Source: Chiloscyllium plagiosum
Lineage: Eukaryota
Assembly (NCBI RefSeq): GCF_004010195.1
Contig: NC_057756.1
Location: forward strand, 970,265 to 1,034,264
Direction: 5' to 3'
DNA length: 64,000 bases
Shown piece by piece: positions 78-49,949 of the stretch (positions are counted from its first letter, which is position 1; each line of letters opens with the position of its first letter). A program made the position numbers and the translations under genes. The notes beneath the pieces are model-generated. The model worked only from the letters and a program-made list of their open reading frames with translations, was not told the origin of the DNA and did not search any database.

Positions 78-98
78 TAAAGGATTTGCCTGATGAAG
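78..98 (+). CDS. Candidate 21-nt phase-1 microexon (xKDLPDE) of the B30.2 gene
   Basis: ttgtag|taaaggatttgcctgatgaag|gtcggt; in frame with the next exon; acceptor has a weak pyrimidine tract. Confidence 0.4.
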
Positions 99-240
99 GT
101 CGGTAAATTCTAATGTTTTGCGAACTGTACTAAACCAGGCAATCGAGTACTATTTTACCATTTGCATTATTTATGCATTACATTTTGGCAACAGTGATTC
201 GGCCAATCAGGATGTGAAATCGTCGGCAGACAATAACAAT

Positions 241-352
241 GGGTAAATGTAGGGGAATGGGTCTGGGTGGGTTGTGCTTCGGCGGGTCGGTGTGGACTTG
301 TTGGGCCGAAGGGCCTGTTTCCACGCTGTAAGTAATCTAATCGAAAAAAAAA
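241..352 (+). mobile_element. 3' part of HE1-like SINE
   Basis: gggccgaagggcctgtttccacgctgtaagtaatctaatc + A tail; same tail as the full copy at 36753-37068. Confidence 0.8.
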
Positions 353-469
353 GTGACACGTGTTGACGCTATATCCACATGTACTGACAATAAGATTACT
401 TAGAACCCAGGCACCAGTTATCTTAAAAGTTAACAGCTCCAGCACGCAAATGCCAATACCGAAAGAGAA

Positions 470-508
470 CTTTCTTTCTCTCTCTCTCTCTCTGTGAGTG
501 TGTGTGTC
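470..508. repeat. (CT)n(GT)n microsatellite
   Basis: direct reading. Confidence 0.85.
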
Positions 509-669
509 TTCTCTGCCTCTCCCTATCTATCGGTCTCTTCCTTAGGTTGGATCTGCCCACTGCCCAGCACCTGTGCTGCAACATTTTAGAATTTCGACTG
601 ACATAAATGAATTTTAAGATCTTGAAAATCCCGCTAAGTTAAAGGGTTCTTTCTTTTATTTCATAACAG

Positions 670-696
670 AAGAAAAGCTGATTAAAAATGACAAAG
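670..696 (+). CDS. 27-nt phase-1 microexon (EEKLIKNDK) of the B30.2 gene
   Basis: strong acceptor ttctttctttttatttcataacag, donor GTAAGC, open frame. Confidence 0.7.
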
Positions 697-1442
697 GTAA
701 GCACTGTTATGAATACAGTCTGGTCAACGTTTTGACATTTATATTTTTTAATTGTCCATTGGGTGCATTAATCAACGAAACTAATGTTTTGATTCTAGTT
801 ATGAGAAGCCCCTGCGTTTTGATGTTGTAAACTATTTGGTTTCTAGTAATGAGAAATATCTCCTTTTGATTTTGCAAAATGCTTTGTATTAATGAAGTTG
901 TGAAATAAGCATTTTGTCTCCCGGTCATATATTTCACAAATACCTTAAACTGAAGTTGAAATCGAGCAGTGTATTCAATAGATAACCTAACTGTTGCTGT
1001 GACTTGCGTGATCCCTATCTCAGATGGGTGCTAACCTTTCTGTGAACTTTTGCAACCTTTGTAATGAATCATAAATTATCATCACATTTAGGAATTTCAA
1101 AACAATTACAACTCCCTTAGTAGAGGAATTATCTCTTGTCTCAGTTCTACACGATTACCTTTAATTCCAAAATTATGCCTCCTGTTTCTGGAAACTTCTT
1201 GCTGTAAACATTAAAGAAGATTGTGACAATTGAAGAATTATAATTCTTCAGAGGCTGAGACAAGGGAAAGTACAAAACAGAATAAGAGTACCTGTGGGGG
1301 AATTTGAAAATAAATCTTGTGTAGAACTTCAATCTACAAATTGTATACAGTGCTATAAGATAAAGCAAGGAAAGCGAAAAAGCTGTTTATAGCAGATAAA
1401 ATTTCCAAATCTTAACTCATAAAAGTCTGATATTTTTGAAAG

Positions 1443-1725
1443 CATCCTACAGTGTGCCTAAAAGGCTATTCATGTTAACACGTCCACAGCGACTCTCAAA
1501 AGAGCATTCCCCCAACCCGGCCTCGTCTGCCTACTGTAGCCCTGCAACTCCGCATTTACCATAACCAATACCGAACCTGCACATCTTTCGAATGAGGTTG
1601 ATCCAGATGAAATCCACACAGACATGGAGGGAATGTGCAAGCTCTACATAGTCGCCTTAGGCTGGAAATAACCCAAGTCCCTGGCATTATCAGGTAGCAC
1701 TGCTAACCACTGATCCACCGCACCA
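1443..1725 (-). mobile_element. Degenerate tRNA-derived SINE
   Basis: similar to 36753-37068 (gcactgctaaccactg..ccacc, acctgcacatcttt). Confidence 0.65.
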
Positions 1726-2642
1726 TTTTGGTCACTGTCCAATTATTTTCAGAAAAATAAAATATGAGTGGACATTTCTGGTTTGGACAGAAATCCCAAT
1801 CAATTATTGACTTTGAAAAATGTGGTAGTGAGATCTGAGCAATGACAGAGACTCCACTTTTTCTTTTTAATGAGTGAAAGTCAGGAACGTCTGTAGTTCC
1901 ATTCAGAATGCTGTGCGGCTTGGAGAGGTACTTTCTTATGGTCGTGCCCCATGCTTCTGCTGGTCTTGTCCTTCGAGGTGGTATAGGGCACAGATTTGGT
2001 TAAGGAATCATGGTGGTTTCACTTCTTGTTAATGTTGGATGTTTACCCACATCACAAGGATAGCTGCGTCTCAATGTGACATCTCACTACTATGTCAATA
2101 TCGAGAAGCGAGAAGCAGCATGCAATTGGCTAGCCACTGACACCTGCATTCCACACATTAATGAAGCAATTTGCCAGACAGTTTACATGATTGTCCAAAT
2201 GTTGCAAATGAAGAAACACAAATAGAGAAACTCAAGAGCTCTCTGCCACGATCACCTTTAATAGTGTTTACTATTTTATTCGTTACTATAGTTGCGCCCC
2301 ATATCCTCAGTGTGCAATTATCATCTTTTGGGAAATAAAAGCGACAGCAACAAATACATGGGGAAATATTTCCTTTGAGCTATTGACATACAAAGCACGA
2401 GAGTACTCTGCTTCAAAATTGGCTGGAAAAATCTTGAAAAATGGTCAAGATGTCGACAGGGTAAAATGCTCCAGTTGGCTCTCCTCTGCTTGCCATTTCC
2501 TGTTCCTTTTTTCTTCTTGCAATATTTTTTTCGGCAGTCCACCACAACTTTTCATTATGCCGACCCGGAGAATGAAATCAGGGAGACGAGTCACGACTGG
2601 AGACTGGGCGGGAGCTGAACACTTGGGCCCTTCCCTGCAGTG

Positions 2643-2944
2643 GCAGCAGAGTGAGCAAGGTCCAAGTTGCAGAGTGCCGGACTGATCTATTTGCGGTGTG
2701 ATGGTAGAAGGTGAATCCTGTGTCTTGGAGCGACACTCAGTGAAGTGAATCTAGTTAAAGTGCGGCTTACTTGTTGCTGCTGAATTCCAGTGAGCAGCAG
2801 AGTGAGCAAGGTCCAAGTTGCAGAGTGCCGGACTGATCTATTTGCGGTGTGATGGTAGAAGGTGAATCCTGTGTCTTGGAGCGACACTCAGTGAAGTGAA
2901 TCTAGTTAAAGTGTGGCTTACTTGTTGCTGCTGAATTCCAGTGA
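2643..2944 (+). repeat. 151-bp tandem duplication (2 copies)
   Basis: 2643-2793 and 2794-2944 identical apart from one C/T at a CpG. Confidence 0.95.
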
Positions 2945-5900
2945 AGAGCGGTCTGGAGGCTGGAGTAATGCGGGAAAGTTTGTTGGAGTCGGGCCTAGCG
3001 CCATGTGCTGAGCTGCTGCAGTTTGGAATTCTTTATGGACTGTAATGTAAATATTTTTTCGGAATGTTATAAGTACCTGATTTCTAACTCATTCTCAGAC
3101 ATTGTAAGCAATGCTACTGTTGTCCTTTTAATACTCTTTTGTATAACAACACCTTTTTTTTAACTCTGTAAGATTTGCACCCAAGTATGTTTACCTAAGA
3201 TGGCGCTTTTAAAAGTCAACCATTGCAAAACCTTTCCACCTCTATACTGGAGTACAAGTGACAATAAATTATATTAAATTCAATTCAATGTTCGATTCAA
3301 TTCAATTGATACTTTTGTCCAGAAATAAATATATCGATAAATACAATTCTACAAAATGATTTCAAACTACCTAAGGTCACAGGCTGTTCATTAAGTCAAT
3401 GGTTCGCAATAAAAAGAACACAATTCTGAGAAATTTTCAAGGCCCATATTTAAACAGATAAAGAGTCCAGGTATCGAAATTGATTGTGTCATCTTCTCAG
3501 AATAGCTTAATGCCCGTAAACAAATAATGCAGGTCGTTCCCAAAGAAAGAAACATGGGTTATGGTGGACTTAAAGTAACTGCAAAGGGCAGGAAAATGTC
3601 ATTTTGTTTTAGAGATTGTCAATGTGCAACAAGACCGAGCAACTAATGGAGATTGTGAAAGACGCATATACTGCGTAATTCATCTTGTTGGGGCTGTCAG
3701 CGCTGGAGTTACATGGGAATGTTTGCATTCAATGTCGGACCGCAGAATGAAAAAAGTGAAATGACTGAACGAGGCAGAAAAGGTATTTGAAGAACCAATA
3801 TTTACTGACGATACATTTGCCTGCAAAATTCTGATGGAAGTGAATATTATTATGAAAAATGAGAATCAACACCCTCCACAAAATTCTCCACCCCCAAACA
3901 TGTTGGTTACCATCAGCAAAATGCCTACAATTCATCCGAGGCCGTATAAATAGGTTTATGAACGCCATTGTGCTCTTAATGTCCTGAACGAGAAGACTGT
4001 ATTTTACAAGCGTGTGACCTATAAATGACAGATGATGAACAATAACTGTAATACCGTTGACAAGACTCGTTGACAGATTATTTTAATATATTTGAATACC
4101 TATTACAACATTTTATTTCCACCTAGATCTCATAAACAAGATAGTATCTTTTTAACAATATTCTGTGTTTCAATTCTGTGCATTTGCAGTTAATGTGTAA
4201 TGCAATCGAAATAAATCCCTTATTGACTCTAACGATAAATTGAAACAAGTTAAACTTGCTAGTGACATTCTTTAGCATATTGTAATTCACTCGGATTTTA
4301 TATGCACTAATGATGCAAGCTGCAACTTTTGTGTAATTTGAAACTTGCAATCTACTTTTAGAATTGAAAGACCTCAAAGCAAAGTGCAGTAAGTAATGAG
4401 TAGGATATTGTGAAAATTCATCATAGAATGGGAACAGAGAAACTGGTAGACGTACATGGGACGCAGCTGGAGCTGCTGTAAAATATTCTGAGCCCTTTGT
4501 TTTAGTATGGAAGAAGTAACCTTCTAGACAGCGCACTGCTTTATATCAGCGTGACAGTTGATTTCAGACAATCGAAGTACAGGCACGGATTAAACACACT
4601 GGCCTTACTTTCCATCAAAATTTACTAGGTGGTTTGAGTGATATTTTGAAACATATAAAGAACGTTTTACTCAGAGAGTAGTAAGGGCATGGTACGCCCA
4701 GCTTGCGACAATGGTCAGCTCACCAAACTTACGGGTACTTAAATGTTAATTACATAATGCAATGGTGTCTAAGACACTATGCTGCCATTCAACAAGTTAC
4801 TGAATGGTCTTATTGTGAGGTGAGATTTACCTATCATAAACAAACGGGCCGTTGTTGCATCAGATGTCTGTGCAGCTGATATTCAACATGATTAACTACA
4901 GCAATATGTGTACTTCAGATGTACTTCATGTGTTGTAGATTCTGGCAATTGCTGCAAAGGATTTGCTTTGAAGATGGCATTTGATTATTATCCTCTGTTA
5001 ATGCAGCCTCTATCATTCAGGATGGTAGATGTCAGACTTTTAGAAATTATCAAAAGAAAAAGAAATGGTTCTCTTTTTGCATAGTAGGCAAAAGGCATGA
5101 ATGTGGAAGCATGTGAATTTTTTTTGGAGGATAGCATACAAATTCAGCAGGCTGATAAGCTTTATAAAATTTGAAGCAAATAGCTTCGGAGTTGTTACTT
5201 ACTCTAATGCCAGCAAATGTTGGGATCCTGTCACTCTCCTGACTTTTGTACTGCGGAAATTCTGGAACATTGTCAGCTCGTTGCTGCAAAGAATTCATCT
5301 TCTTGTGTCTTCCATGCCTTATGGATGAGTCAAAATTCTAGAACAGTATTCCTTTCTGATCTGTCATAAAGCTATAATTAGGAGACGGTTCCCTCTAATC
5401 CTAGAATTCCCCATGAGGGAAATAATCCTCTTAGCATGTTTTCTGTCAGGGCTTTTTGGAATCTTATTTATTTCAATGCGATCATTTTCTTTCATTCTCA
5501 ACTTCACTGAGTAGAAACAAGACCTGTTGCCTTTGCTAATAAGACATTTACTAAATACCAAACATTATCCGACTGAAACCTCTTCTGAATTGTCTCCGAT
5601 AATATTATTTCTTCCATGACATCAGAGGGCCAGAACAACTTATATTACTCCAGAAGTGATCTCAGAAGCATCTTATGCATTTGCAGCAGGACTTCACGCC
5701 TCCTTTATAACAAATCTCTTGAAATAAGAGCCAACATTCCGTTAGCCTTCCTGATTAACTGGTGCACGTGTATGCTAACTTTCTGTATGTATGGCCAAAT
5801 ATTCATGAGCCTCTCTGTGTTGCAAATTCCTGCAGTCTTTTTTCTTCTTCTTCATTTAATTAATGCTGTATTCTTTTGTTCTACCTTCCAAAACGAACAG

Positions 5901-5949
5901 CATATTGTAATACATGACTGAATGTTTATCAAAGGTAAAGATCGAAAAA

Positions 5950-7700: not shown

Positions 7701-7757
7701 GAATGAAGAAAAGTAAAATGAAAATTTCAGGTTTGGTGCTTAGTCCAGATTGATTTT

Positions 7758-9945
7758 ATGAACATAGAACATAGGATATACAGCACAGTACAGGCCCTTC
7801 AGCCCTCGATTTTGCACCACCCAGTGTCACAAAGCTTGCCTTTTTTTTTGTCTAAAAGCTATTCCTTGGCTCAAAGATACTCTGTCCTTGATTTTTTTAA
7901 GAGGGGTAATAAACAAGGCCGGGCTCTGATCAGTCTTGCTTGGTACAGAGATGAAAAGCATTTGAGAGGCCTTTTGTTTATATGTAAACAGATGAGACTT
8001 AAGGCCAAAGTGGTCATATTTTAGAACCGACCTATATAATGAAAGAGGAGTGATCAGCTCTCTCGACCAGCAGTTTAGTTCAGTCTTGGAGTGGCGAGGA
8101 GTTCACCAGCGAGCTGTGTGGAAATTTCCTCTCTCTCTTGGCTGCCCTTCAACTTCAACTTGGAAGCATGGGTTGCATTTATTCTGGTTTTGAAAGGGAG
8201 TTTGCTTATTGGGACTGTTGCGTGTATTCGGAACACCACAATTAAGTCTAGTTTGGATAGATTGAGTTCTGTAGGGGTTCTTTATTCTGTTTGTTATGTT
8301 TCATTGTGTAATTTTGTCAATAAATCTAGTAATCAACCTAGCTAACGTACTCCGGGTAATTTTCACTGCACGCTTACCAAAACAAATTGTAAAGTTATGG
8401 TCTGGGCTGCCTGCGTAAGAATGTTCTGAGTGTTCTGGCCTAGTGCAATCCCTAGCCCATTTAACCGACAGTGTTCCATTCTCGTGCATATGCCTATCCG
8501 ATGACCATTTAAATGACCTTAAAGTTGGCAAGTCTACAATCTATGCAAGCAGTGCGTTCCACACCCTGATACTCTCTGAGTAAAAGAACTACCTCTGATA
8601 TCTGTCTGTATCTATCACTCCTCAATTTGAAGCTCTGCTGCCTTGTGCAGCCATCACCATCCTCGGAAAAAGGCTCTAACTGTCCACGCGATCCAACCCT
8701 CTGATTATCTTATATGTCTCAAGCAAGTCACCTCTCAACCTTCTTCTCTCTAACAAAAAGAGCCAAAAGTCCCTCAACCTTTCCTCGTAAGACTTTCCCT
8801 CCATACCAAGCAACATCCTAGTAAATCTTCTCTGAACCCTTTACAAAGCTTCCACGCCTTTCCTATAATGCGGTGACCAGAACTGCACACAATACTCCAA
8901 GTGCAGTTGCACCGGAATTTTGTACAGCTGCAGCATAACCCCATGGTTCCGAAACTCGATCCCTCTACTGAGAAAAGCTAACAGTCTTCCTAGCAGTCCT
9001 ATCAACTTGAGTGGAAACTTTGAAGGATATATGCACATGAACACCAAGATCTCGCTGCTCATCTACACTACCAAGAATCTTACCATTTGCTCATGACTCA
9101 TCATTCCTGTTACTCCCTTCAAAGTGAGTCACCTCCCACCTTTCTGCATTAATCTCATTTGCCACCTCTCAGCCCATCTCTTCAGCTTATCTATATCTCT
9201 CTGTCACCTACAACATCCTTCAGCATTATCCACAACTGTAGCAATCTTAGTGCCGTCCATAAATGTACTAATCCATCCTTCTACGTCCTCAACCAGGTCG
9301 TGCATAAAAATGGCAAACAGCAGCGGACCAAAAACAGATCCTTGCGGTTCAGCACTCGTAACTGAACTCCAGGAGGAACATGTCCCATCAACCACCACCC
9401 TCTGTCTTCTTTTAGCTAACCAATATCTGATCCAAACCGTGAAATTGCCCTCAGTCTGATGGCTCTGTATTTTGCTCAATAGCCGACTGTGGGAAGCTTA
9501 TCAAACGACTTACTGAAACCCACATCCACCATATCTATTTGGCCACCTTCTCAAATAACTCAATAATGTTTGTGTGGCATGACATAACCTTCACAAAACA
9601 CTTGACCTTTTCCTAAATCAATGTATTCCTACCGAGATAATAATAAATCCTATCATTTATAACCCTTCCAACACTTTAATCACAACCAAAGGAAGGCTCA
9701 AACGCCTATAATTACCAGGGTTGTCTCTACTCTCCTTCTTGAACAATGGAACAATACTTGCTTTCTTCCAGTCTTCAGCTACTATTCGTGTAGACAATGA
9801 TGACATAAAAATCAAAGCCAAAGGCTCAGCAATCTCCTCCCTGGCTTCCTAGTGAATCCGGCCCAGGGAACTAATCTATTTTCACACTTTCCAGAATTTC
9901 TAACGCCTCCTCCTTGTGAACCTCAATCCCATCTAGTCTAGTTTA
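7758..9945 (-). mobile_element. 5'-truncated CR1 LINE interrupted by a solo LTR
   Basis: RT fragments (RQRVVVDG..PQGSVFGPLLF; LEYCVQFWSPHY); tail at 7758. Confidence 0.9.
7825..8447 (+). mobile_element. Solo LTR (~620 bp)
   Basis: TG...CA ends; interrupts the CR1 tail; its end resembles the reverse complement of LTR-like sequence at 16452 and 63141. Confidence 0.6.
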
Positions 9946-10199
9946 GTGAAAGGAATTTTTTGCAAATCTGCATCACGAGCAGCAGAGTTCTGGATTATGT
10001 GATACCGTAGAGCAAGTATAACCTTACTTCACGTTCAGAGGTGACAACGAAATTAATGAAATCCTTAGTCATCAGGACAAGAACTATATCTCGTATCAGC
10101 TTGAGAAATCTAAGTACATCACGAATGGTCTAGTGACCACTATGAGGGAGAAATTCTAAATACCTGTATTTTAATAAGGTAATTCTTTCTTTATTAAAG

Positions 10200-10232
10200 A
10201 TGTCAGCACTGAAGAGGACAGTGAAAATAAAG
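10200..10232 (+). CDS. 33-nt phase-1 microexon (DVSTEEDSENK)
   Basis: ttctttctttattaaag|...|GTAAGT consensus donor; open frame. Confidence 0.7.
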
Positions 10233-10900
10233 GTAAGTTCATGTATGAGCTAAGAAGTTGGAAGTGAGATTTTATTTGGTATTTTGCTTCAAATAATATG
10301 ACATTCGACTTAAAGTTTCAGTCTTCATGACTTTGAGGAAATCACATTCAATAGGCAAGCTTGACCGGAAAAAATGAGTAAATGCATTCATCTTGATAGA
10401 GCTTCTCACCAACTTTGTGGATCCCAAAATGTTTATATCTGAAAATATGTTCATAAAGTACATACTAAACTCCCACAAATAACAAGGTGTTCATGGCTAC
10501 TTGATCCATTTATGACTTGATCGTTGATGGATAACTAAGTGGAAGAGCAGCAGGAAATATCTCGATTTCACATATAATAGCAACGGTGGTAATTTGGAAC
10601 TAACCCAATAAAGCAACGTGGATGTTTGTTTACCCATCCACTAGCAACAGAGGAACAGTTTTTCGGGGTCAAATTATCCAACCTCTGTTTATGCACATTC
10701 CTACAACGGTTTAAATATTTGATTCCCCCATCATTTGTGCTAGTCCTTGTTGCAGCAGATTGTACATATTATTGGTACTGTGCTTAACCAGGTCAATATT
10801 GCATAATGGTAGACTGGTGGCCTATTCATTGAAATTGAGACATAACCAGAAAAGGAATCTTTTATGGTTAACTTAGCATTCGATGCTATTTATTTTTCAG

Positions 10901-10927
10901 AATTGGAAATACTCCGACAGAAATACA
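10901..10927 (+). CDS. 27-nt phase-1 microexon (ELEILRQKY)
   Basis: tatttatttttcag|...|GTAAAG; helical/coiled-coil-like peptide. Confidence 0.65.
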
Positions 10928-11854
10928 GTAAAGTATTTGCTTCTTTACATGCATTGACACTAATGCATTTAATTCATTGCTCCAACTGGAAAATAATTCA
11001 AATTCACAGCCTTGGATTATGCTTGAAGAACAGTTTTCCGGTGACTACATTAAGTTTATGTTCTTTCTTGACATACTGATCGGCAGCTGAGTTAAAGTGA
11101 ATCAATTCAGCTGCGTTATGGGAGGGTAATATTATTGAAGCACTCTTTCTAATGCACCCACTTAATCTTCTCACATGATGTTTTCATCTCTACACGTTAT
11201 TTTGTGACGCATTGAAAGTAGTCCCACAGGACTGTGATTGACAAAAGGGTAGAATTCAGAAAGCCACAGATTCAGGATCATTTTCTTTTAATCCAGACGT
11301 TCTGAGACATCATATGAATTTGTCCTAACTGTTGTTCTGCTGTGGAGATTACTGAGATGGTGAGGGTAACACTCATTACCGATCCCTAGTTGTGCAGAGA
11401 GCAGTTACAAATCAAGCTCGTCATTGTAGATCTAAAACCACATGGATGGCAGACTAAATAAATCACCTTCCTCTTATCTGATATTCCGTCAAAGCATTCT
11501 ACATTCTTACCATTCGTATGTGAACATGGTTCTGCTGAGTTAGCCATACTGTTGAACAATTGTTGCCTTACATTTATGCATCCTTGCTCTGGAATTCAGA
11601 ATGATTGGAAACATTTTCTGGCTATCACAACTATCGATGACCACAAGTAGTCACAAGGAATTTGTTCATCACTCTGGATTCTCTGCCTCAAAGGAATGTT
11701 CCTTTCTTTGGTTAGACTATTTGTCTTTCTGTCTTGAAAGTTCATGTTGTCAGCTTTACTGTATTCCATTGTAGGATAAAGAGAATTTCCTTCAAATAAT
11801 CGTTTTATTTAATGTTTTATGGGCTTTCATTACTGTTTTGTTTTCTGTCAACAG

Positions 11855-11878
11855 TTGAAGCCTGTGTCAAGGTTCGAG
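11855..11878 (+). CDS. 24-nt phase-1 microexon (IEACVKVR)
   Basis: tgttttgttttctgtcaacag|...|GTAGGA; open frame. Confidence 0.65.
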
Positions 11879-12130
11879 GTAGGACTGTTCCTAATCTATT
11901 CAGTTTCATGTTTTACAAAGCTTCAAAGTGTCAAAACTTTGATTCAGGCCGCATCCACAGTTTGAATGAGCTTTCTATTTAGCTCCACTCCATTGTTCAT
12001 TCTCTACGGTGATAATGCAGCCACTTATTTAACTTAATCCTCAAATATTCATGCAATTTCTCATTGTCAAGCTACAAGAATTGCGGGTATCGATTTAGTG
12101 CAACATATTCATTAATATTGTTACTTTCAG

Positions 12131-12166
12131 AATTGGAAAAAAAGCTTCAAGAGTCATGTGGGGAAG
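12131..12166 (+). CDS. 36-nt phase-1 microexon (ELEKKLQESCGE)
   Basis: ttgttactttcag|...|GTAAGA; coiled-coil-like peptide. Confidence 0.7.
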
Positions 12167-12559
12167 GTAAGATTGGAGGGTGTTTGATGGCTCTCTACAT
12201 ACTACTTACTGTGAAATAAAGATGGGTGGATAGGAGAAAGAATCAAAATGGACAAATATTTTCACCCATCGAATTAGATAATATCTCAATTATATCTAAA
12301 CCCCACTAATTTTGAGAACATTACTTCATTGGTTCTCCTACTAACTATCTGTGTTGCTTTTAAAATATTCAGAAGTAAAGAAAAGAAACATGCGCAGCAC
12401 TTGAATTTGTTTCTGTTACTGTCTATCTGCCATGTAATACCGCATTCATTCAAACGCATTTTTAAAAGCATTAATTTGTTCATGCTTTTGTGTGTATTTC
12501 ATTTTTCTCACGGCTAGTAGCAAAAGGGAATCCTACAATGCTACAACAGAGAATTAATC

Positions 12560-13310
12560 ATGGAACCACAGAGTTCTACAGCAGCACACAGACGCTTTGG
12601 TCCAACTCGTCCACGCGGATCAGATATCCTGAACTGATTCAGTCCCCTTTGCCAGCAGTGAGCCCATGTCCCTCTAAACCTTTCTTTTATTTATGAAACC
12701 ATCCAGATGCTTGTTAAATATTTTAATTGAACCCACCTCCACCATCTCCTCTGGCAGCTTATTCCATATAAACACAATCGTCTACATGAGAATGTTGCTC
12801 TCACATGCTTTTTAAAGTCATACTACTTTAAAAAATAAACCTATGACATTTAGTCTTGGACTGTCATACACCAGGAAAACGACTTTAGTTACTCACCCTG
12901 TCCATGCTCCTCATGAATCTGTAAACCTGGATAAGGTCACCCCTCAAACTCCAACACACTAGTGAAAAAAAGACCCAGCCTATTCAGCCTGTCCTTCGAC
13001 TTCCAATCCTGGTAACATCAGTATGATTTCTTTTTCCTGAAACCTTTCAAGTTTAACAACATATTTCGTATAGCAGGACGACCAGAATTGAACGTATTAT
13101 TCTAAAAGTAGCCTCGCTAATGTCCTGTGCAGCTAGAACATGATGTCTGAACTGCTCTACTCAATGCACTGACCAATAATGGCAAACATTCCATAGGCTT
13201 TCTTCACCATATTCCCTACCTACGACTCAATTTTCAAGGAACTATGCACCTACACCCCCAGGTTTCTTTGCTTGTTAATACTTCCCAGGGTCCTGCCATT
13301 AACTGTATGC
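12560..13310 (-). mobile_element. CR1 3' fragment
   Basis: reverse complement of the CR1 3' end seen at 44321-45010. Confidence 0.8.
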
Positions 13311-14190
13311 AGTTGCAGATACACCATGGGTGAAAAGATACAGGAAAATCAAAGAAAAGAAACACTTGCACTGCATCATCATATGCAGATGCTTGTACTC
13401 TGTTGCGTGCCAATTTCTGATAGTGATAGACATTTGAGTGACTGTACCTTTTCTATAGACAGCAAAACAAGTTAATAAAGGAATGGCAAATTCATCCTAA
13501 TACGGGGCGATAATCAGAGGGGATTAATCAATCTGTAGGTGGTAATTGTCCATCCTTTCTAAAGCAACAACTCAGGTTAATAGTGATACTAAAATGCGAG
13601 CAACAAACATTATGGACAAGATTAAAACAATGGTGAGGATGTAAAAGTTTTTTTTTGCAAGTATTTCAGGTTTTAAAACGACTGTTACGATGAGTTTGCA
13701 GAAAGGAAAAAAAAAAACACGTTGGAAATTGTCCTTGCTTGATCAAAGGGCACAGTGCCATTCGCGGTGATAACGAACAACCAAGAGGTTTCAAAGAGAG
13801 CAAAGAAATGAAACTTATTCTAATGGGAGGAGGTTCGATGCCTACGGGGCACACGTTGAAAGTGTAATGCAATAAACATCAGAGGCAAGACGGTGATGTT
13901 TTGTTTTCATATGTTCAACATGTATTCATGATTGTGTGCAACATGTTCAAAATGTTTACAAGCATGCATCGAATAAGAAGTCTCTTGGCTTATTTTCTTT
14001 TAGTGCCTTTTTTGGACCAGGCTAGAACCTCTGCAGAAATCTCTAACAGACTGAAAGTGACATTATTACACCAAGTATGTTCATAACAATCGAATTCAAT
14101 ACCTAGAAAAAACATACTCACACCTACCACTCATCACCTTTGAGTCCAACAATCTTAATCCCATACTGACTTTGCATCAGAGATCACTGA

Positions 14191-15990
14191 CGAGAGGGAC
14201 ATGATGAATGTTGAGATTAGAGATAGAAGCTTGTTTACTCTGGATCACATTGACAAAAAGAGCGAAGATGTGTTGGGTAGGCTAAAGGATATTAAGGTGG
14301 ACAAATGCCCAGTACCCGATTGGATCTATCGCAGGTTGCTGAGGGAGGCGAGAGATGAAATATCTAGGGCCCTGACAGATATCTTTGTAACATCCTTAAA
14401 CACAGGTGAAGTGCCAGAGGACTAGAGGGTAACTTATCTTGTCCCCCTGTGCAAGAAGGATAGTAGGGATATTCCAGGTAACTACAGACCAATGAGTCTG
14501 ACTTCAGTGGTGGGAAAGTTACTGGAGAAGGTACTGAGGGATAAAATCTATTTATATTTGGAAACAAATGGGCTTATCAATGGCAGGCAACATGATTTTG
14601 TGCGGGGGAAATCATGCCTTACCAAGTTAATAGAGTGCTTTGAGGAAATGACCAAGTTGATAGATGAAGGAAGGACTGTAGATGTCATATACACAGACTT
14701 TAGTAAGGCGTGTGATAAGGTTCCCCATGGTATAGTAATGGAGAAAGTGAAGTCACATGATGATCAGGGTGTTCTAGCTGGGAGGATAAAGAAATGGTTG
14801 AGCAACAGGAGATAGAGAGTAGTAGTTGAAGGGAGCTTCTGGAAATGGAGAAAGGTGCCCAGTGCTGTTCCACAGGAGTCAGTATTGGGGTCACTGTTGT
14901 TTGTGATATACATAAATGCTCTGGAAGAGGGCACTATTGGTCTGATCAGTAAGCTTGCAGATGGCACGAAAATTGATGGAGTAGCAGAAAGCATAGGGGA
15001 CCGCTGAAGAATACAGGAGAATATAGATAGACTGGAGAGTTGGGCAGAGAAATGGCAGATGGAGTTCAATCCAGGCAAATGTGAGGTGATACATTTTGGG
15101 AAGTCTAATTTTAGAGCGAAATATACTGTAAATGGAAGATGCTTGGGAAAAGTGGATGAGCAGAGAGATCTGGGAGTTCAGGTCTATTGTACCTTGAAGG
15201 TGAATGAAAGTGACATTATTACACCAAATGTGTTCATAACAATCGAATTCAATACCTTGAACAAAACATACTGACACCTACTACTCATCACCTTTGAGTC
15301 CAATAACCTTAATCCCATACTGACTTTGCATCAGAGTTCACTGAGGAGAGGAGTGGTCAAGAAGGCATATGGTATGCTTGCCTTCATCAGACGGGGTATT
15401 GAGTATAAGAGCTGGCAGGTCATGTTAAAATTTACAAGACGTTTGTGCGGTTGCATGTAGAATACTGTATACAGTTCTGGTTGCCACATTACCAAAATGA
15501 TGTGGATGCTTTCGAGAGGATGCAGAGAGGGTTTATGAGGGTGTTGCCTGGTATGGAAGGTGCTAGCTATGAAGCGAAGTTGAGTAGATTAGGATTGTCT
15601 TCATTAGGAAAAAAAAAGAGATTGAGGGGAACCTGATTCAGGTCCACAAAATCATGAATTGTATAGACAGGGTGGATAGAGATAAGATTTTTCCCAGGGT
15701 GAGGGATTCAATAACGAGAGGTCACAGGTTCAAGGTGAGAGGTGAACCGTTTAAGGGGGATACACGTGAAAAGTACTTTACACAGAGGGTGGCAGGTGAC
15801 TGGAATGCGTTGCCAGCACAGGTAGTAGAAGCAGGCACGGTAGATTCATTTAAGGTGCATCTGGACAGATGCATGAGGAGGTGGGTGACAGAGTGTTACA
15901 GATGCTTAGGAATTGGGCATGTATTTGGATTGGCTTAGGCTTGGAGCGCCGAAGTGTCTGTTCCTGGGCTGTAAATTTTCTTAGTTCTTT
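14191..15990 (+). mobile_element. 5'-truncated CR1 LINE with an internal templated insertion
   Basis: SLTSVVGKLLE, KSCLT, DVIYTDFSKA, MEFNPGKCEV; stops and frameshifts. Confidence 0.9.
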
Positions 15991-16009
15991 TGCTTTTTGA
16001 CCAAACTAG

Positions 16010-16400
16010 TACATGAAGATCAAGTCACAAGACACGACCAGTACTCTTTAATTTCCACCCACACAGACAACGACGGATATTAATTCAACTGGGACAACGT
16101 AACCATCCCAGCATAAGCTAAATAGAGATACGTGAGACAATTCCTTGAATCCTGGCACTTCAATCGGAACATAATCGATAAACACATTGAACTGGATCCC
16201 AGATACAAATCACTCAGGTACAGTACTGGAAGTACCAAAAGAGATGCATAAAAACCAGGTGGGTCAGACTACCAATAACATATCTAAGATGCACTGATGA
16301 TACCTCCTAGCGAGTCTGCCGAAAACCAGACCATCACACTGAATGAATCTATGACCTCATCTACAACCCGAGCTACAAATCTTTTCAAACACTCTAAACG
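16010..16400 (+). mobile_element. Penelope-like element 3' fragment (GIY-YIG C-terminus and terminal repeat)
   Basis: translates as LISTHTD..FNWDNVTI..RQFLESWH..IDKHIELDPRY. Confidence 0.7.
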
Positions 16401-16451
16401 CTAATCCCAAATTGGAACTATAGAATAAATCCTGCCCAGAGCCCCAATATC

Positions 16452-16565
16452 TGATGAACCAGGCCAGACCCTCTCAAAACATTGTAAAAGCTAGCCCAGA
16501 CCCTAGCTTTTATGAAGGCAGATCAAAAGTGGTTATTCCAGGAGTGATGCAGCTGGTGAAAACAT
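16452..16565 (-). mobile_element. LTR fragment
   Basis: accaggccagaccctctcaaaa similar to the start of LTR 63141. Confidence 0.5.
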
Positions 16566-16569
16566 TCAG

Positions 16570-19505
16570 TTGGTTAGGATGTTCTTTGGAAATGAGAGAG
16601 ACTCGCGGTTGGTGTGTTGCTTTCCAGGTTCCAGGGTTCATGATATCTCTGATCGTGTTTTCGGGATCCTTGAGGGGGAGGGGGGCAGCCCCCAGTCGTG
16701 GTCCACATAGGCAACAATGACATAGGTAGGAAGAGAGATGGTGATTTAAGGTATAAATTCAGGGAGCTAGGGTGAAAGCTTAGAGCGAGAACAAACGGCG
16801 TTGTTATCTCTGGTTCATTGCCCGTGCCATGTGCTAGCAAGGCGAGGAAAAGGGAGAGAAAGAGTTGATTACGTGGTTACAGGCGTGGTGCAGGAGCGAG
16901 GGCTTTGGATTCCTGGATAATTGGGCTCTTGCTGCGATCGAAAAGGTAGGGAAGACGTTTAAAAAAAGGATGGTCTTCACCTGAACCAGAAGGTACCAAT
17001 ATCAGTATCCTGTGGAGGAAGGTGGGGAGGGGGGATGTTTGCTACTGCTATTCAGGAAGGTTTAAGGTAGTTCAACAAGGAGATGAGAAATTAAACTGTA
17101 ATTCCAGTGTACAGGAGGTTGAGAGATCAGAAATAAGGTTTAAAGTTTGCAAGACACACCTGCAAGCAAGAGGTTGGTTTGAAGTGTATCTATTTCAACG
17201 CCAGGATAATCAGAATAAGGTGGGTGAACTTGCAGCATGGGTTGGTACCTGGGATTTCGATGCTGTAGCCATTTTGGAGACGTGGAGCAGGGACAGTAAC
17301 GGTTGTTGCAGGTTCAGGGGTTTGATATTTCATTAAGATCAGGGAAGGTGGTAAAAGAAGGGGAGGTGTGGCATTGTTAGTTAACGGCAGTATTGCAGTG
17401 GCAGAAAGGACGGTTGAGGACTCATCTACTGATGTAGTATGGGCTGACAATTGAACGGGAAAGGAGAGGTCACCCTACTGGGAGTTTTCTATAGACCTCC
17501 AAATAGTTCCAGAAATGTAGAGGAAATGAAAGCAAAGATGATTCTCATTAGGAGCGAGAGTGACAGGGTAGTTATTATGGGGGACTACAATTTCTCAAAT
17601 ATTGACTGGGAATATTATAGTTCAAGGACTTTAGATGGGTCAGTTTTTGTCCAATGTGGCAAGAGGGTTTCCTGAAACAGTATGTAGACAGGCCGACAAG
17701 GGGCGAGGCCACATTGCATTTAGCAGTGGGTAATAAACCTGGCCAGGTGTTCAATTTGGAATTAGGTGTGCACTTTGTTGACAGTGACCGCAATTTGGTT
17801 ATCTTTATTTTAGCCATGGAAAGGGATAGATATATAAAGCAGAGCAAGAGTTACAGCTGAGGGAAAGGTAATTATGATGTGATTAGGCAAGATTTAGAAT
17901 GTATAGGATGGGGAAAGAAAGTGCACAAGATGGGCATTATTGAAATGTGTAACTTATTAAAGGAGCAGCTACTGGGGATCCTTGATAAGGATGTACATGC
18001 TAGATAAGGATGAAATAGTCGAACGTGGGAACAGTGGTTGAATTTCATATCAAGAGGAAGAATTCTTATGTTAGGATGAGACGTGAATGCTCAGTTAGTG
18101 AGTTTGAGAGTTAAAAGTTCGCCAGGAAATACTGAAAGAGAGAGCGAAGAAGAGCCAAGGTAGGACATGAGAAGCCGTTGGCAGATGGGATCAAGGGAAA
18201 CCCTAAGGCTTTCTATATGTATATCAGGAATAAAAGAATGGTTAGAGTAAGATTGGGACCAACCAAGGATAGTAGTGTGAAGTTGTGCATAGAGTCATAG
18301 GAGATATGGGAAGCATGGAATGAATATGTATCGTTAGCATTCACACTGGATACAGACAATGTTTTCGTGGAGAATACTGACGACTACAATGGGTGGGATT
18401 GAGGTTCACAAGGAGGAGGTGTAAGTCCTTGGGCCAGATGGTATCTATCCCAGAACTCTCTGGGAAGCCAGGGAGGGGATGGTGGAGCCTTTTGCTTTGA
18501 TATTTATATTGGCATTGTTTACATGAATAGTGCTGGAACACTGAAAGACAGTCAATGTTGTTCCCTTGTTCGAGAGGGGGAGTAAAGACAACCCTCTTAA
18601 TTATAGACCAGTGAGACTTACTTCAGCTGTGGCCAAAGTGTTGGAAAAGGTTACAAGAGATGGATTTATAATCATCTAGAAAGAAATAAGTTGATGAGCG
18701 ACAGTCAATACTGTTTTGTGAAGGGTATGTCGGCCCTCACAAACCTTACTAAGTTCTTGAGAAGGTAACCAAACAGATGGATGAGACTAACGTGGTCGAT
18801 ATTGTGTATATGGATTTCAGTTATGCTTTGATAAGATTCCCATAGTAGGCTATTGCACAACATACAGATGCATGGGATTGTGGGTGAATTAGCAGTTTGG
18901 ATCAGAAATTGACTAGCTGAAGGAAGACAGAGGGTGGTGGTTGATAGGAAATGTCCATCCTGGAGTTCAGTTACTACTGGTGTACGGCGAGGATATGTTT
19001 TGGGGTCACTACTGTTTGTCATTTTTATAAAAGACTTGAGTGAGAGCGTAGAAGAATATGTTAGGAAATTTGCGGATGACACTTTGGTAGAGTTGTGGAT
19101 AGTGCCGGAGGACTTTTTACGTTACAGACGTACAGAAATAAGCTGCAGAGCTTTGCTGTGAGGTGACAAATGGAGTTTAATGTGGAAAGGTGTGAGGTGA
19201 TTCACTTTGGAAGGAGTAACAGGAATGCAGAGGATTGTGCTAGTAGTAAGATTCTTGGTAGTGCAGATACAGAACGATCTTGGTGTCCATGTATATAGAT
19301 CCCTGAAAGTTGCCACTCAAGTTGATAGGGTTGTGAAGAAGGCATATGGTGTGTTTAGTATCTATTTGTAAAGTGATTGCGTTTAATTGCGATGAGGTCA
19401 TACTGCAGCTGTACAAAACTCTGGTGCGGTCGCACTTGGGATATTGCATACAGTTCTGGTCATGTATTATAGGACGCATTTGGAAGCTTTGGAAAGGGTT
19501 CAGAA
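16570..19505 (+). mobile_element. Decayed CR1 LINE (ORF1 esterase end, endonuclease, RT)
   Basis: VVISG, DAVAILETW, GVFYRPPNS, MGDYNF, KFADDT; many stops. Confidence 0.9.
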
Positions 19506-19555
19506 GATGACAAGCGTACATCCATGAATAAATCTCTTGGTTTGTTTTCTTTTAG

Positions 19556-19576
19556 ACTCGAAGGAAAAAGAATCAG
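19556..19576 (+). CDS. 21-nt phase-1 microexon (DSKEKES)
   Basis: tttgttttcttttag|actcgaaggaaaaagaatcag|GTCAGT. Confidence 0.65.
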
Positions 19577-20554
19577 GTCAGTCCCCTGTTGAATTAATGG
19601 AGAGGGAAGATGGGACAAGGGGGGATTGCATATAATTAATCTATCTCAGTGAAGTATGTTAATTGGAACTGTCTGATATAACAGTGAAATATAGCTTCAA
19701 ATTCATCTCTGGAAGGGGTACATCCACCACTGCAGTGTTTCATGGAACAGTGAAAGTAGTTTGAATGTTATTCTATCCCAGGGCTGCATTTGTTCTGAGA
19801 GTTTAATATTCATGGATCAATGTGCTATATCTCCTCCTGCAGTTTATGATAAGGGATGGGATATCATTTTGATGTTCGTCTTTGTGAATGTCAACCTTGG
19901 TGTATTTGGTAAGGAAGTGCTTGCAATTGGAGATACTTCCCTCTCGGTGTCTTGTCACCGCTTTCGACTTTGTGAGCATCTGACTGTATGAAATGTCAAA
20001 TATAGGTTTAAAAGGGAAGTTTTGGCACTGTGCTGAACTAAGGCCTTCAGAGAAGGAAAGTGATGTTTCGTTTGAATGAAGCTTCTACAAAGGCAGTATG
20101 TCCGTCGTATTGACCACAGATTTCTCTACTCGGATACAAAAGTTCAGCTCTTGCTTGAACACATAATGAGTCAGACCAAATGGTGAGAGATCACAACCGT
20201 CCAAGTATAAAGCCGCACTTCCCTAACAGTTCCGTGTTCGCTTCTACTCAACTTGCGCTCTGCCTATACACAAGAGGTATCGCTCCTCACACTGCAACTG
20301 CCGTTGAGGAAATGGAGAACACTGATCTCCCGAGGTAAGTTTTTAAACTGAACTCCTACCTTCCCTCGACCCTCTGGTGCTCGCTGTCGCTCCTCCCACT
20401 GCAACTGCTGCAGATAAAATGCGTTCCTTCTGTGTGACTTTCTTGTCATACTGCGTTTTGTTTTCACACGTGCCCATGTAGCGACGAACGCGCTACGGGC
20501 TGAAGATGACAAGCGTGCATCCACGAATAAATCTCTTGGTTTGTTTTCTTTTAG

Positions 20555-20575
20555 AGTCGCAGGAGAAAGAATCAG
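20555..20575 (+). CDS. 21-nt phase-1 microexon (ESQEKES)
   Basis: tttgttttcttttag|agtcgcaggagaaagaatcag|GTGAGT. Confidence 0.75.
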
Positions 20576-21719
20576 GTGAGTCCTCTATTGAATAATTGGA
20601 GAGGGAAGGTGGGACATGGAGGGTTGGGGATGAGGGGAGTGGGGGAGCATGTTTAAAATTAGTCTTTCCCAGCGTCGTATGTTCCTTGGATGTGCCTGAT
20701 ATAACCGTAAATAGTTTCAAATTTATCTCTCGAAGGACCACATCCGTTATTGCAATGTTTGATGGAACAGTGGATGTAGATTGAATGTTATTCAATCCTG
20801 GGACTGCATTTCTTCTGAGAGTTTAATATTCAACGATCACAGTGCTATATCTGCGCCTGCAGTTCCTGATACGTGGTAGGCTATTATTTTGATATTCGTC
20901 TTTTTGAATATCAACCTTGGTGTGTTTGGTAAGAAAACACTTGCAGTTGGAGAAACTTCCCTCTCGATGTCTCGTCTGTGTTTTGTCACCGCTGTAAGTG
21001 TTCGACTTTGAGCATCTGACTGTATGAAATGTCAAATGTATATTAAGAGGGAAGTTTTGGCACTGTGCTGAGCTAAGGCCTTCAGAGAAGGAAAATAATT
21101 TTCTTTTGAATGGATATTCTATTAAGGCAGTGTGTCCGTCGTAAAGACCCACAGAAATCTCTACTCGGATACGGAGGTTCAGCTCTTAGAGTCATAGGTC
21201 CTAGAGATGTACAGCATGGAAACAGACCCTTCGGTCCAACCTGTCCGTGCCGACCAGATATCCCAACCCAATCTAGTCCCACCTGCCAGCACCCGGCCCA
21301 TATCCCTCCAAACCCTTCCTATTCATATACCTTGCTTGGGCACAAAATGATTCAGACCGAATGGTGAGAGATCACAACCGCCCAAATATAAAGCCTCACT
21401 TACCCGTGTACGCTCCTGCTCAGCGTGCTCTAGCCTTCCCGAGGTACCGCTCCTCCCACTGCAGCTGCTGCTGAGAAAATGAAGAACGCTAACCTCCCGA
21501 GGTAGGTTGTTAAACTCTTGTAATACCTTCCCGTCAGACCTCTGGTCATCGCTGTCTCTCCTCCCACTGCAACTGCCGCCGAGAAAATCTGTTCCTTCTC
21601 TGCGATTTTCCCGCCACATTGCATTTTTTCACACGTGTACACGTAATGACGAACCTGCCACGGGCTGAAGATGACAAGCGAGCATCCATGAATAAGTCTC
21701 TTGGTTTGTTTTCTTTTAG

Positions 21720-21740
21720 ACTCGAAGGAGAAAGTTTCAG
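21720..21740 (+). CDS. 21-nt phase-1 microexon (DSKEKVS)
   Basis: tttgttttcttttag|actcgaaggagaaagtttcag|GTGAGC. Confidence 0.7.
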
Positions 21741-22699
21741 GTGAGCTAATGAAGAGGGAGGTGGGACACGGGCGCCATGTTTAAAATTAGTCTATCCAAG
21801 GGTCGTATGTTCCTTGGAACTGTTTGATATAACAGTGAAATATAGCTTCAAATTTATCTCTGAAAGGGCTACATCCACCATTGCAGTGTTTAATGAATGA
21901 GTGGAAGTAGTTTGAATGTTATTCTATCCCAGGGCTGCATGTGTTCTGAGGGTTTAATATTCATGGATCACAGTGCTATATCTGCCCCTGCAGTTTCTGA
22001 TAAGGGATGGGATATCATTTTGATGTTCGTCTTTGTGAATGTCAACCTTGGTGTATTTGGTAAGGAAGTGCTTGCAATTGGAGATACTTCCCTCTCGGTG
22101 TCTCGTCTGTGTTTTGTCTTCGCTATGAGTGTTCGACTTTGTGAGCATCTGACTGTATGAAATGTCAAATGTATATTTAAGAGCGAAGTTTTGGCACTGT
22201 GCTGAACTAAGTCCTTCAGAGAAAAAAAAAATGACGTGTTTGAATGAATCTTCTAAAAACAGTGTGTCCGACGTATTGACCCACAGAATTCTCTACTCAG
22301 ATACGAAAGTTCAGGTCTTGTTTGAACACATAATGATTCAGGTCGAATGGTGAGGCATCACAACCGCCCAAATATAACGCCTCACTTCCCCAGCAGTCCC
22401 GTGTTCGCTCCTGCTCAGGTTGCACTCTGCCTATACACGAGGTATCCCTCCTCCTAGTGGAACTGCCGTCGAGAAAATGAAAAATGCTGATCTCCCGGGG
22501 TAAATTTTTAAACTGTACTCCTACCTTCCCTCGATCCACTGGTGCTCGCTGTCGCTACTCCCATTCCAACTACTGCCGAGAAAATGCGTCCCTTCTCTGT
22601 GATTTTCCTGCCACACTGTGTTTTAATTTTCACACGTGCACATATAGTGACGTACCTGCCATGGACTGAAGATGACAAGCGTGGTTTATTTTCACTTAG

Positions 22700-22720
22700 A
22701 CTCGAAGGAGAAAGAATCAG
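22700..22720 (+). pseudogene. Inactivated 21-nt exon copy (donor GT>CT)
   Basis: ttcacttag|actcgaaggagaaagaatcag|CTGAGT, plus a deletion upstream of the acceptor. Confidence 0.7.
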
Positions 22721-23445
22721 CTGAGTCCCCTGTTGAATGAATGAAAAGGGAAAATGGGACATGGGAGTTGGGGGACATGTTTAAAATTAATCTGCCCCAG
22801 CGTCGTCTGTTGCTTGGATGTGTCTGATATAACAGTGAAATATAGCTTCAAATTTATCTTTGGAAATCCGCCATTGCAGTGTTTAATGGAACAACTTTGG
22901 TTGACTGAATGTTATTCTATCCCGGAACTGCATTTGTTCTGAGAGTTTAATATTCATGGATCTCAGCGCGAAATCTGCCCCTGCAGTTTCTGATAAGGGA
23001 TAGGATATCATTTTGACGTTCGTCTTCGTCAACGTTAACCTTGGTATACTGGTAAGAATATGTTTGGAATTTGAGAAGCGTTCCTCGCTATCTAGTCTGT
23101 TTTTTGTCACCTCTATGAGTGTTCGGCTTTGTGAGCATTTGAATGTATGAAATGTCAAATGTATATGAAGAGGGAAGTTTTGGCACTGCGCTGAACTAAG
23201 TCCTTCAGAGAAGGAAAATGACTTTTCATCTGTATGAATCTTCCGATAAGGCAGTGTGTCCGTCCTATTTCCTCACAGAATTCTCTACTCAGCTCAGCTC
23301 TCGCTTGAACACATCATGATTCAGATAAAATGAAACCACAGTGCTCAACAGGAGCAATTACTACAACTGAACTCTGATGGTCAATATTAAGCCGTACATT
23401 TATGCTTCACATCTGTTCTCTCTGCTTTCAAACAAGGCCATTCAG

Positions 23446-23472
23446 ATTGGAGGGACGTGAAGAGAAATAAAG
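23446..23472 (+). CDS. 27-nt pre-B30.2 exon (DWRDVKRNK); alternative in-frame acceptor at 23437 gives 36 nt
   Basis: ...aacaag|gccattcag|attggagg...aaag|GTGAGA; a short W-containing exon typically precedes B30.2 exons. Confidence 0.75.
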
Positions 23473-24254
23473 GTGAGAAATAAGATATTTGCCTGTCCCA
23501 CAGTTTGAATGTATTGTTAACATCTCAGAGTAATATAACATACCAGTACTCATAAGTTAAAACAACACAATGTAAAGTAGATAACTGCTAATCAATTGAA
23601 CGACCTGTTTTACAGAGGGAACTGGGTGACTCTGGAGCTGTTGATCATTTAAGAACATATTTCGTAGGGACAGGATTATGCCATTAAGCTGTTTGGATCT
23701 GCTGTGCCACTTAATGATTTTATGTTATATGTTTGACCTTGGGATCATTATTATGTAATGTCAACATCTTTCTTAAGATTTTTTTTAATTTTATACTGAG
23801 AAATATATTAGTCACTGAAGCATGCTAAATGATTGGCCCTTCTGGGATAGAGAATACCAACATTCGTCATCCTCTGAATGAAAAACTTCATCTCATTTCG
23901 TTCTTTTATGATCTGGTTCGTTATCAGAATCTGCATTCTTCTTCTCAATGCAACAGGCAGGGGTAGAGCTCTGTAAGAATTGCACATGTTTTAGTTACTT
24001 CAACTCATATTCTTCTAAGTTCCAATGAGGTTTTGAAGAGAAAGCTGAAAATTCTCAAGACGGTTAAATCAATAGAGTGGAAAGAGTTTTACCGCTTGCA
24101 GTGGGAAATGAAAATATTCGTCTACCACATACTTAGTGTTGCATTTAAATGAGTTGACCTTTTACGTGTGCTATACATTATTTCGTAAGTCTGTACACCT
24201 CCATGAACCTCATTGCGGATATATTTCAGAATTGTGTTTCTTTTTGTTTTGCAG

Positions 24255-24775
24255 TGTCAGTTTTTCTCGATGGGGAAACATCGGATCCACGATTCACTCT
24301 ATCTGAAGATCGGACCAGCCGCACGTGGGATGCAAACGCCCAACTTACACCAGAACAGAAGCAGCATAAATTAGACAGTTGGGCCATATGGGCGCGAGAT
24401 GGACTCGAGTCAGGAAAACATTACTGGGAGGTATCAGCTGGCCCAGAGACGGCGTGGACTGTGGGAGTCTCTCAGCACACAATACCCATATCCAGATTTC
24501 ACAGACCCTCGGTCAAGGTGGGGTTTTGGGTAATGATGTTGTGGAACATCAAGGGCACCCGTGTGCAAGTAAGGAAATTGGGCACAACCATGCTGTTGGC
24601 CCCATTGAACAAACTAGGAGTTTATGTGGACTTTATCGAAGGTCGAATCTCTTTCTACAACCCAGATGGTGGGGCTCATCTGCATACTTTCAACGCCGAG
24701 TTCACTGGTAAAGTTTACCCCGTCTTTCAGCTCTGGGCAAGCACCCGTCCTGATGGGACCATCTCTATTGTTTAG
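24255..24775 (+). CDS. Terminal exon encoding a B30.2 (PRY-SPRY) domain; butyrophilin/TRIM-like gene
   Basis: acceptor tttttgttttgcag; VFLDGETSDPRFTLSED, SGKHYWEV, WTVGV, GFW, KLGVYVDFIEGRISFYN, HLHTF, KVYPVF; TAG stop. Confidence 0.93.
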
Positions 24776-40469: not shown

Positions 40470-40900
40470 GGCCTGATGTCTGATTGGATCGTCACTCCTG
40501 TCGGCCCCGCATGCATTTTCCAGCTTTCGCTTCTGATTGGTCAGTGGCCCCATGGAGCACTTTTGACGGACGTTTCATGTCGAAATACGATTGGACCGGG
40601 TTTCAAAAGGGGCTGAGGGACCGCTTTTCGTATTGATCTGACGGAGACCCACGTGGTCCATTGACAGACGGCCTGTTTGCCAATTCGATTAGTTTGCAGT
40701 TTGACAGACGGGCCATCTTTGGATTCTATTGGTCAAGATCTCACGTGAGCCGCTTGAGGGACAGTCCGTTTCACACTGGGCAGTTTGACGGACGTGTTTA
40801 TCCGACTGGTAATTGGTCAGTGTCCCACGTGGTTGAGGGGTTGGACATTTGGTGGTGCTGTCTCGGGGTCCGGTGGCTGGAACTGGGTAGAGTGGCCACG
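40470..40900 (+). promoter_or_regulatory. CpG-rich promoter/5' region of the Myb/SANT gene with CCAAT boxes, E-boxes and TTGAC(A/G)GACG repeats
   Basis: ATTGG at 40483, 40536, 40590, 40728, 40812; CACGTG at 40650, 40742, 40826; TTGACRGACG at 40563, 40661, 40701, 40785. Confidence 0.75.
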
Positions 40901-49913: not shown

Positions 49914-49949
49914 TTGGAGAAATGGTCCCTCACTGTCACTTTACCCACT

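Follow-up and report, generated by a model that had tools for sequence, protein, structure and literature searches.

Near the start of a 64,000-nucleotide (nt) stretch of the genome of the shark Chiloscyllium plagiosum (the window; NC_057756.1, here C47, positions 970265-1034264) lies the 3' end of a predicted gene whose coding sequence is divided among very short exons and closes on a B30.2 exon. The ten short segments from which a sequence-only reading had assembled this gene are present at the positions and with the lengths it gave, each bounded by AG and GT, and they splice in phase 1 and without a stop onto the terminal B30.2 exon at 24255-24775. That reading had held that none of the segments shows among the open reading frames (ORFs); the terminal exon is visible as an ORF. 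When 700 kilobases (kb) of upstream DNA were analysed along with the window, the segments proved to be the tail of a much longer same-strand chain of phase-1 microexons, which runs upstream to about C47:470 kb, with none at 270-450 kb; the window contains its final eleven microexons together with the B30.2 exon.

The microexon chain and its relatives

The chain was catalogued as 141 exons (71 of 27 nt, 53 of 36, seven each of 15 and 21, two of 24 and one of 33), a count that is approximate, at least one further exon having been found by comparing its 5' part with a paralogue, A. A peptide exon model, trained for each gene on the other two of three paralogues, supplied 118 of these exons, with two model hits dropped or re-bounded, the other 23 being manual additions or corrections. 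Its 4,158 coding nt, spread over 524 kb, are predicted to specify 1,386 residues followed by the B30.2 domain, with 20% Lys, 19% Glu and 14% Leu in the rod. The linker that the sequence-only reading described as unusually long and modular is about 1,390 residues long rather than about 90.

When candidates of 15-40 nt were counted from splice scores alone over the gene span, multiples of three made up 79 of 111 on the sense strand, 20 of 64 on the antisense strand and 11 of 32 in upstream DNA, and the 79 sense candidates were open in phase 1 in 76 cases, in phase 0 in 28 and in phase 2 in 45. Candidates of 27 and 36 nt together numbered 56 in sense and 6 in antisense, while the window by itself gives small counts (multiples of three in 6/7 sense and 2/5 antisense). 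Further, the cross-trained model found 120 sense against 4 antisense exons in this gene, 74 against 6 in paralogue A and 68 against 3 in paralogue B.

Within the exons, positions 2, 5, 9 and 12 of the 12-residue class are hydrophobic in 92, 92, 89 and 64% of cases, and position 4 of the 9-residue class in 69%. The hydrophobic periodicity at 3.5 residues reaches 0.86 with the exons in genomic order and falls to 0.40 +/- 0.07 when their order is shuffled (maximum 0.50 in 30 shuffles), and its loss on shuffling ties the order of the exons to the heptad register; a catshark (Scyliorhinus) RefSeq protein of 945 residues, P0221, likewise reaches 0.86. A 36-nt and a 27-nt exon together encode 12 + 9 = 21 residues, or three heptads. 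The claim that any exon can be skipped in frame is largely borne out, as 137 of 139 single-exon skips in the catalogue leave no stop, but skipping is not neutral: whole heptads are encoded by only 7 of the 141 exons, and single skips therefore shift the coiled-coil register, which a 12 + 9 pair keeps.

The genome holds at least five members of this family, three on C47 and two on contig C37. Paralogues A and B carry the same kind of chain, and pattern matches suggest that these extend to at least 3.10 and 1.90 megabases (Mb), respectively. Seven window exons share 4 to 8 identical residues each with paralogue A exons of the same rank and length, and the exon before B30.2 is matched as well. 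At the 5' end, 7 of the 8 non-repeat matches to paralogue A with E < 0.01 are microexons with splice sites (six catalogued, one newly seen), the eighth being low-complexity DNA. In paralogue E, 20 microexons match P0221 with 150 of 196 residues identical, and the two are collinear, 18 of 19 steps being ordered and 12 of 19 neighbours abutting exactly. The window exons at 10200-12166 align to Scyliorhinus P0048 with a score of 111 (shuffled maximum 94), and alignment of the whole rod exceeds exon-shuffled controls for both P0048 and P0221. The clusters closest to P0221, two atlas clusters of 1,277 and 1,579 residues that have SPRY/PRY but neither an Ig nor a RING family (scores 0.93 and 0.91), offer a lead only.

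Family-like exon patterns also match outside the five mapped genes, at C37:21591639 (-), which may mark a further chain, and at C46:3824571 and C46:3879816 (+). The chain of paralogue B is interrupted by an 84-kb break (C47:1594-1678 kb) in which ORFs resembling zinc fingers were seen by eye on both strands and probably represent nested genes. Retrovirus-like gag/pol fragments lie upstream of and inside paralogue D (C37:22.34-22.45 Mb; by eye).

Among the window features (Table 1), the segment at 78-98 is the least certain, since its acceptor is poor (score -3.1), it has no clear homologue in paralogue A and equally weak candidates number 36 on 525 kb of the antisense strand. The donor of 10901-10927 (-1.9) and the acceptor of 23446-23472 (-2.6) also score poorly, yet homologues of both exons occur in paralogue A and among annotated proteins. 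A B30.2 profile of the family (six sequences) finds the B30.2 domain of human BTN3A1 as its best solved-structure match (2.3e-32), and a structure model of moderate quality (predicted local distance difference test score, pLDDT, 68) matches PRYSPRY structures at about 1e-7. Where the window carries four tandem units, paralogue A has a single copy. A gap of 2,249 N (C47:968016-970264) abuts the window start and may conceal exons, and a direct duplication of about 142 nt lies within an intron, at window 2654-2940.

Table 1. Features of the gene within the window (window coordinates)
Feature	Position	Strand	Evidence
21-nt phase-1 microexon candidate, least certain	78-98	+	AG/GT present; weak acceptor; paralogue A homologue unclear
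27-nt microexon, common 9-residue class	670-696	+	Strong splice scores; positional homologue in paralogue A, 5/9 residues
27-nt microexon, overlooked earlier	4362-4388	+	23/27 nt identical to paralogue A positional homologue C47:4550294; genome pattern match
33-nt microexon	10200-10232	+	Same-rank 33-nt homologue in paralogue A; aligns to Scyliorhinus P0048
27-nt microexon	10901-10927	+	Weak donor; 7/9 residues identical in paralogue A; matches Scyliorhinus P0048
24-nt microexon	11855-11878	+	24-nt homologue in paralogues A and B; matches Scyliorhinus P0048
36-nt microexon	12131-12166	+	8/12 residues identical in paralogue A
Four tandem units of about 1 kb, one 21-nt exon copy each	19503-23269	+	Start-to-start spacing 980-1165 nt
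21-nt microexon, tandem unit 1	19556-19576	+	Good splice scores; one 21-nt exon here in paralogue A
21-nt microexon, tandem unit 2	20555-20575	+	Splice scores; tandem repeat comparison
21-nt microexon, tandem unit 3	21720-21740	+	Splice scores; tandem repeat comparison
Fourth 21-nt exon copy, predicted dead	22700-22720	+	Donor CT, not GT
27-nt Trp-bearing exon immediately before B30.2	23446-23472	+	Homologues: paralogue A C47:4576590, paralogue B, Leucoraja P0188
Terminal exon, intact B30.2 (PRY-SPRY fold), stop included	24255-24775	+	Pfam SPRY 1.7e-16; profile and structure matches
Presumed 3' untranslated region	24776-25970	+	AATAAA at 25601, 25881 and 25965 (motifs only)

Relation to butyrophilins, BG genes and TRIMs

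The sequence-only reading took the gene for the 3' end of a butyrophilin-like immune receptor. In its fullest form this would be a membrane receptor of butyrophilin or BG type whose cytoplasmic tail is enormous and whose Ig and transmembrane exons escaped the search, either because they fall outside the sequence that was read or in a gap of the assembly, or because they have diverged too far to be recognised. PMC5938342 describes BG tails encoded in phase-1 exons of 21 nt and butyrophilins with a B30.2 domain at their end; moreover, BTN3A1 is the best structural match of the domain, two family members lie on C37, a contig rich in butyrophilin/TRIM B30.2 exons, and small gaps of N and the unread first 270 kb of C47 leave some room for hidden exons. 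It is nevertheless a very unlikely identity. Searches of C47:270-994 kb by tblastn with shark butyrophilin and TRIM queries, which left C47:1-270 kb outside, returned only the B30.2 exon (with retroelement junk for two queries), and no IgV, IgC or transmembrane exon was detected there. Nor did such queries match anything over the 210 kb that precede this chain, in the regions flanking paralogues A and B or over the 120 kb ahead of the paralogue D chain. Pfam searches of 65 ORFs of at least 72 residues from C47:420-470 kb, and of three others, found no Ig, RING or B-box, and no V-set match lay near the gene among the 150 candidates scored out of 1,319. The highest 19-residue hydropathy in the rod is 0.22, with no credible transmembrane exon in the 5' flank, and 21-nt exons, the repeat unit of BG tails, account for only 7 of the 141.

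The B30.2 domain itself points the same way. In a tree of 51 rows, a branch with 100/100 support and a length of 1.16 separates the 12 rows of the family from all others, as a chondrichthyan clade of its own apart from the butyrophilins and TRIMs; elsewhere in the tree butyrophilins and TRIMs mix with each other, and the tree thus picks out no sister group for the family. Annotated members carry no Ig domain, and SPRY is the sole Pfam family in five that bear the rod and one with B30.2 only. An identity as a TRIM was rejected too, RING and B-box exons being absent from the same upstream searches. What endures of the sequence-only reading is therefore a shark gene of phase-1 microexons that ends in B30.2 and follows an exon logic like that of BG tails, while the butyrophilin label falls away.

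Other genes were met in the course of these searches. A two-exon gene of the rhodopsin family of G-protein-coupled receptors lies upstream on the same strand (C47:427.8 and 407.7 kb; L117:7555-8487 and L119:7407-7673; 7tm_1 5.4e-18), and LY6/uPAR-like exons with weak Pfam matches occur at C47:367-371 kb (L122:666-953, L123:7223-7465). On C37, B30.2 exons of butyrophilin/TRIM type, many of them intact, form a very large cluster at 27.5-34.4 Mb.

A predicted rod with a B30.2 head

With a rough probability of 0.6, the locus is read here as one gene of about 141 predicted phase-1 microexons over 524 kb, encoding a soluble, probably cytosolic adaptor made of a coiled-coil rod of about 1,390 residues and a B30.2 domain. 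B30.2 domains are usually cytosolic, and this, together with the failure to detect a signal exon, makes a cytosolic location likely over a secreted one. In such a protein, two chains would pair in parallel as a coiled coil some 200 nm long (1,386 x 0.15 nm, a predicted geometry) with two B30.2 heads at one end, and the heads could bind a protein partner while the rod acts as a putative tether or spacer. Since the exons are symmetric, the rod can grow by duplication and shrink by splicing. Exon duplication would lengthen it in evolution, the tandem units of the window being a recent case, and alternative splicing might shorten it by about 3 nm for each 36 + 27-nt pair. Skipping a single exon is predicted to break the register of the coil, with exon pairs as the neutral unit.

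Several observations weigh against this reading. The 23 of 141 exons that were placed or corrected by hand enter into it, the junction of the first two catalogued exons creates a stop, and a start exon was looked for at the 5' end of the chain and not identified (C47:1-270 kb was not covered). Alignment of the whole rod to P0188, P0194 and P0190 does not rise above exon-shuffled controls, and no annotated protein of the same sub-clade longer than 358 residues was found. The chain of paralogue B tolerates other genes inside it, and the upstream receptor gene is thus no strict boundary. No transcript was seen: over window 9800-25900, the read sets X5, X6, X1 and X7 (about 2% of X5 read, nothing placed from X6, and X1 behaving as DNA) gave no exon coverage from an RNA run, and four contig sets guessed to be RNA yielded one 40-nt piece; a single continuous mRNA is thus a prediction. 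Finally, the 47 Cys of the rod and the hydrophobic stretch with which Leucoraja P0188 begins are compatible with secretion.

Three exon-class patterns give 17 matches in this gene and none in C47 below 483 kb, which favours, without proving, a 5' end near 470 kb. Of the start exons considered there, a short ATG exon at C47:461325 was dropped as it looks repeat-derived (by eye), and candidates at 457015 and 438347 were not convincing. The exon at 469875 matches an N-terminal motif of chimaera, yet the first two residues of that motif also match an intron acceptor here; genome-wide the pattern occurs at chance (65 matches versus 73 in the control), and the exon joins the next one through a stop.

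The Cys residues and the start of P0188 lead to a rival in which the same giant protein is secreted by way of an unseen upstream signal-peptide exon, and Cys at core positions join the rods by cross-links to make a fibre or matrix outside the cell. P0188 is the closest annotated homologue, and one hydrophobic ATG exon candidate was also found upstream of paralogue D. However, neither C47:429-480 kb nor the 5' flank of A or of B yielded a convincing signal-peptide exon, and this gene and A have none in common. The start of P0188 ends like an intron acceptor, and P0043, from the same cluster, begins with another hydrophobic stretch right before B30.2, as would be expected of introns read into both models. 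The rod holds five N-glycosylation sequons, about the number expected from its composition. Secretion appears unlikely, if worth keeping in mind.

A further rival would divide the locus among several transcripts, with an internal promoter driving one in which only the final few dozen microexons are joined to the B30.2 exon, and with the upstream exons belonging to other transcripts or to partly dead duplicates. In keeping with it, annotated homologues are mostly 200-380 residues long, the window holds one dead exon copy and a stop-forming junction occurs at the 5' end. The heptad register is maintained, however, along the whole exon order, the upstream exons are conserved in paralogue A and follow the same order there, and no other terminal exon was seen within the chain. 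An annotated member of 945 residues exists, and the chain of paralogue D continues past the annotated Narcine start, which suggests that short annotated models are truncated and their N-termini unreliable. Division into several transcripts accordingly seems quite improbable, and the single-gene reading is kept. The isoform models annotated for homologues in Narcine and Callorhinchus differ from one another in internal segments 6, 7 and 9 residues long, a pattern consistent with microexon skipping.

Elsewhere in the window, a Myb/SANT-like ORF (40637-41257, +; Pfam PF13873, 1.4e-10) and an ORF of 286 residues with no Pfam family (60360-61220, +) are possibly genes of a Harbinger-type transposon. 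Decayed copies of long interspersed nuclear elements occupy introns and downstream DNA (14300-19450, 32200-33700 and 43000-55000), with Pfam matches to their endonuclease and reverse transcriptase at 51972-52697 and 53841-54257, and a Gypsy-like fragment lies near 33057-33653 (by eye; no Pfam match).

The rod-B30.2 family among known systems

The gene belongs to a group of cartilaginous-fish coiled-coil and SPRY proteins that are annotated but unstudied, among them Leucoraja XP_055510696 ('TRIM69-like'), Scyliorhinus XP_038668997 ('TRIM39-like') and P0221 ('A33-like'), Callorhinchus XP_042191566-8 ('TRIM58'), Narcine XP_069775384-90 and Cetorhinus XP_078422387. These share the B30.2 clade, the modules of 9 and 12 residues and SPRY as their only Pfam family, under names that are automatic stand-ins and in models mostly far shorter than the predicted chain; relatives range from chimaera to rays, and annotation appears to truncate the family and misname it as TRIMs. 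No paper describing a rod-B30.2 family was found in the open-licence literature. A wider proposal, held with less than even confidence, is that cartilaginous fishes have an undescribed family of genes, half a megabase to a megabase in size, that build tethers of at least 200 nm from more than 100 interchangeable three-heptad exon pairs, with splicing as a length ruler, single skips as hinges and a B30.2 lineage of their own as the head. If expressed as predicted, the gene would be an extreme case of a microexon-assembled domain (524 kb of DNA for 4.2 kb of coding sequence) and would offer a direct test of growth by exon duplication and of a coiled-coil length set by splicing.

Chicken BG tails, in the accounts given by PMC5938342 and PMC4046983, are long coiled coils encoded by phase-1 mini-exons, mostly of 21 nt, in 27-38 repeats of variable number and with alternative splicing. 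The BG genes described there have signal, IgV and transmembrane exons, their long tails are contrasted with the B30.2-ended tails of butyrophilins, and a soluble BG-derived tail, zipper protein, acts on actin-myosin (PMC5938342, PMC4046983). The present gene shares with them a coiled coil encoded by many phase-1 mini-exons but differs in its 27/36-nt pairs, its roughly 140 exons, the presence of B30.2 and the absence of any Ig or transmembrane exon from the DNA searched. Butyrophilins, which are known in sharks from what is given in PMC12841164, likewise place a heptad stretch before a terminal B30.2 exon; theirs amounts to a few heptads against about 200 here, their IgV, IgC and transmembrane parts were not found here, and the present B30.2 sits on a separate long branch. 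TRIMs with B30.2 (TRIM39, TRIM21 and the A33/nuclear factor 7 type) also combine a coiled coil with that domain, whereas here no RING or B-box was found and the microexon-built coil exceeds an entire TRIM protein several-fold in length.

The closest model for how such a protein might work is enterophilin-1, which is said to be a soluble, long heptad (leucine-zipper) rod with a C-terminal B30.2 domain and neither Ig nor RING. It is mammalian and much shorter, and the likeness is one of architecture; the resemblance is likely convergence. Enterophilin-1 is a partner of SNX1 and lowers surface EGFR, as cited in passages of PMC13749957 and PMC9205943. Set beside these systems, the predicted gene would bring to sharks not another butyrophilin receptor but a third B30.2 architecture, alongside butyrophilins and TRIMs.

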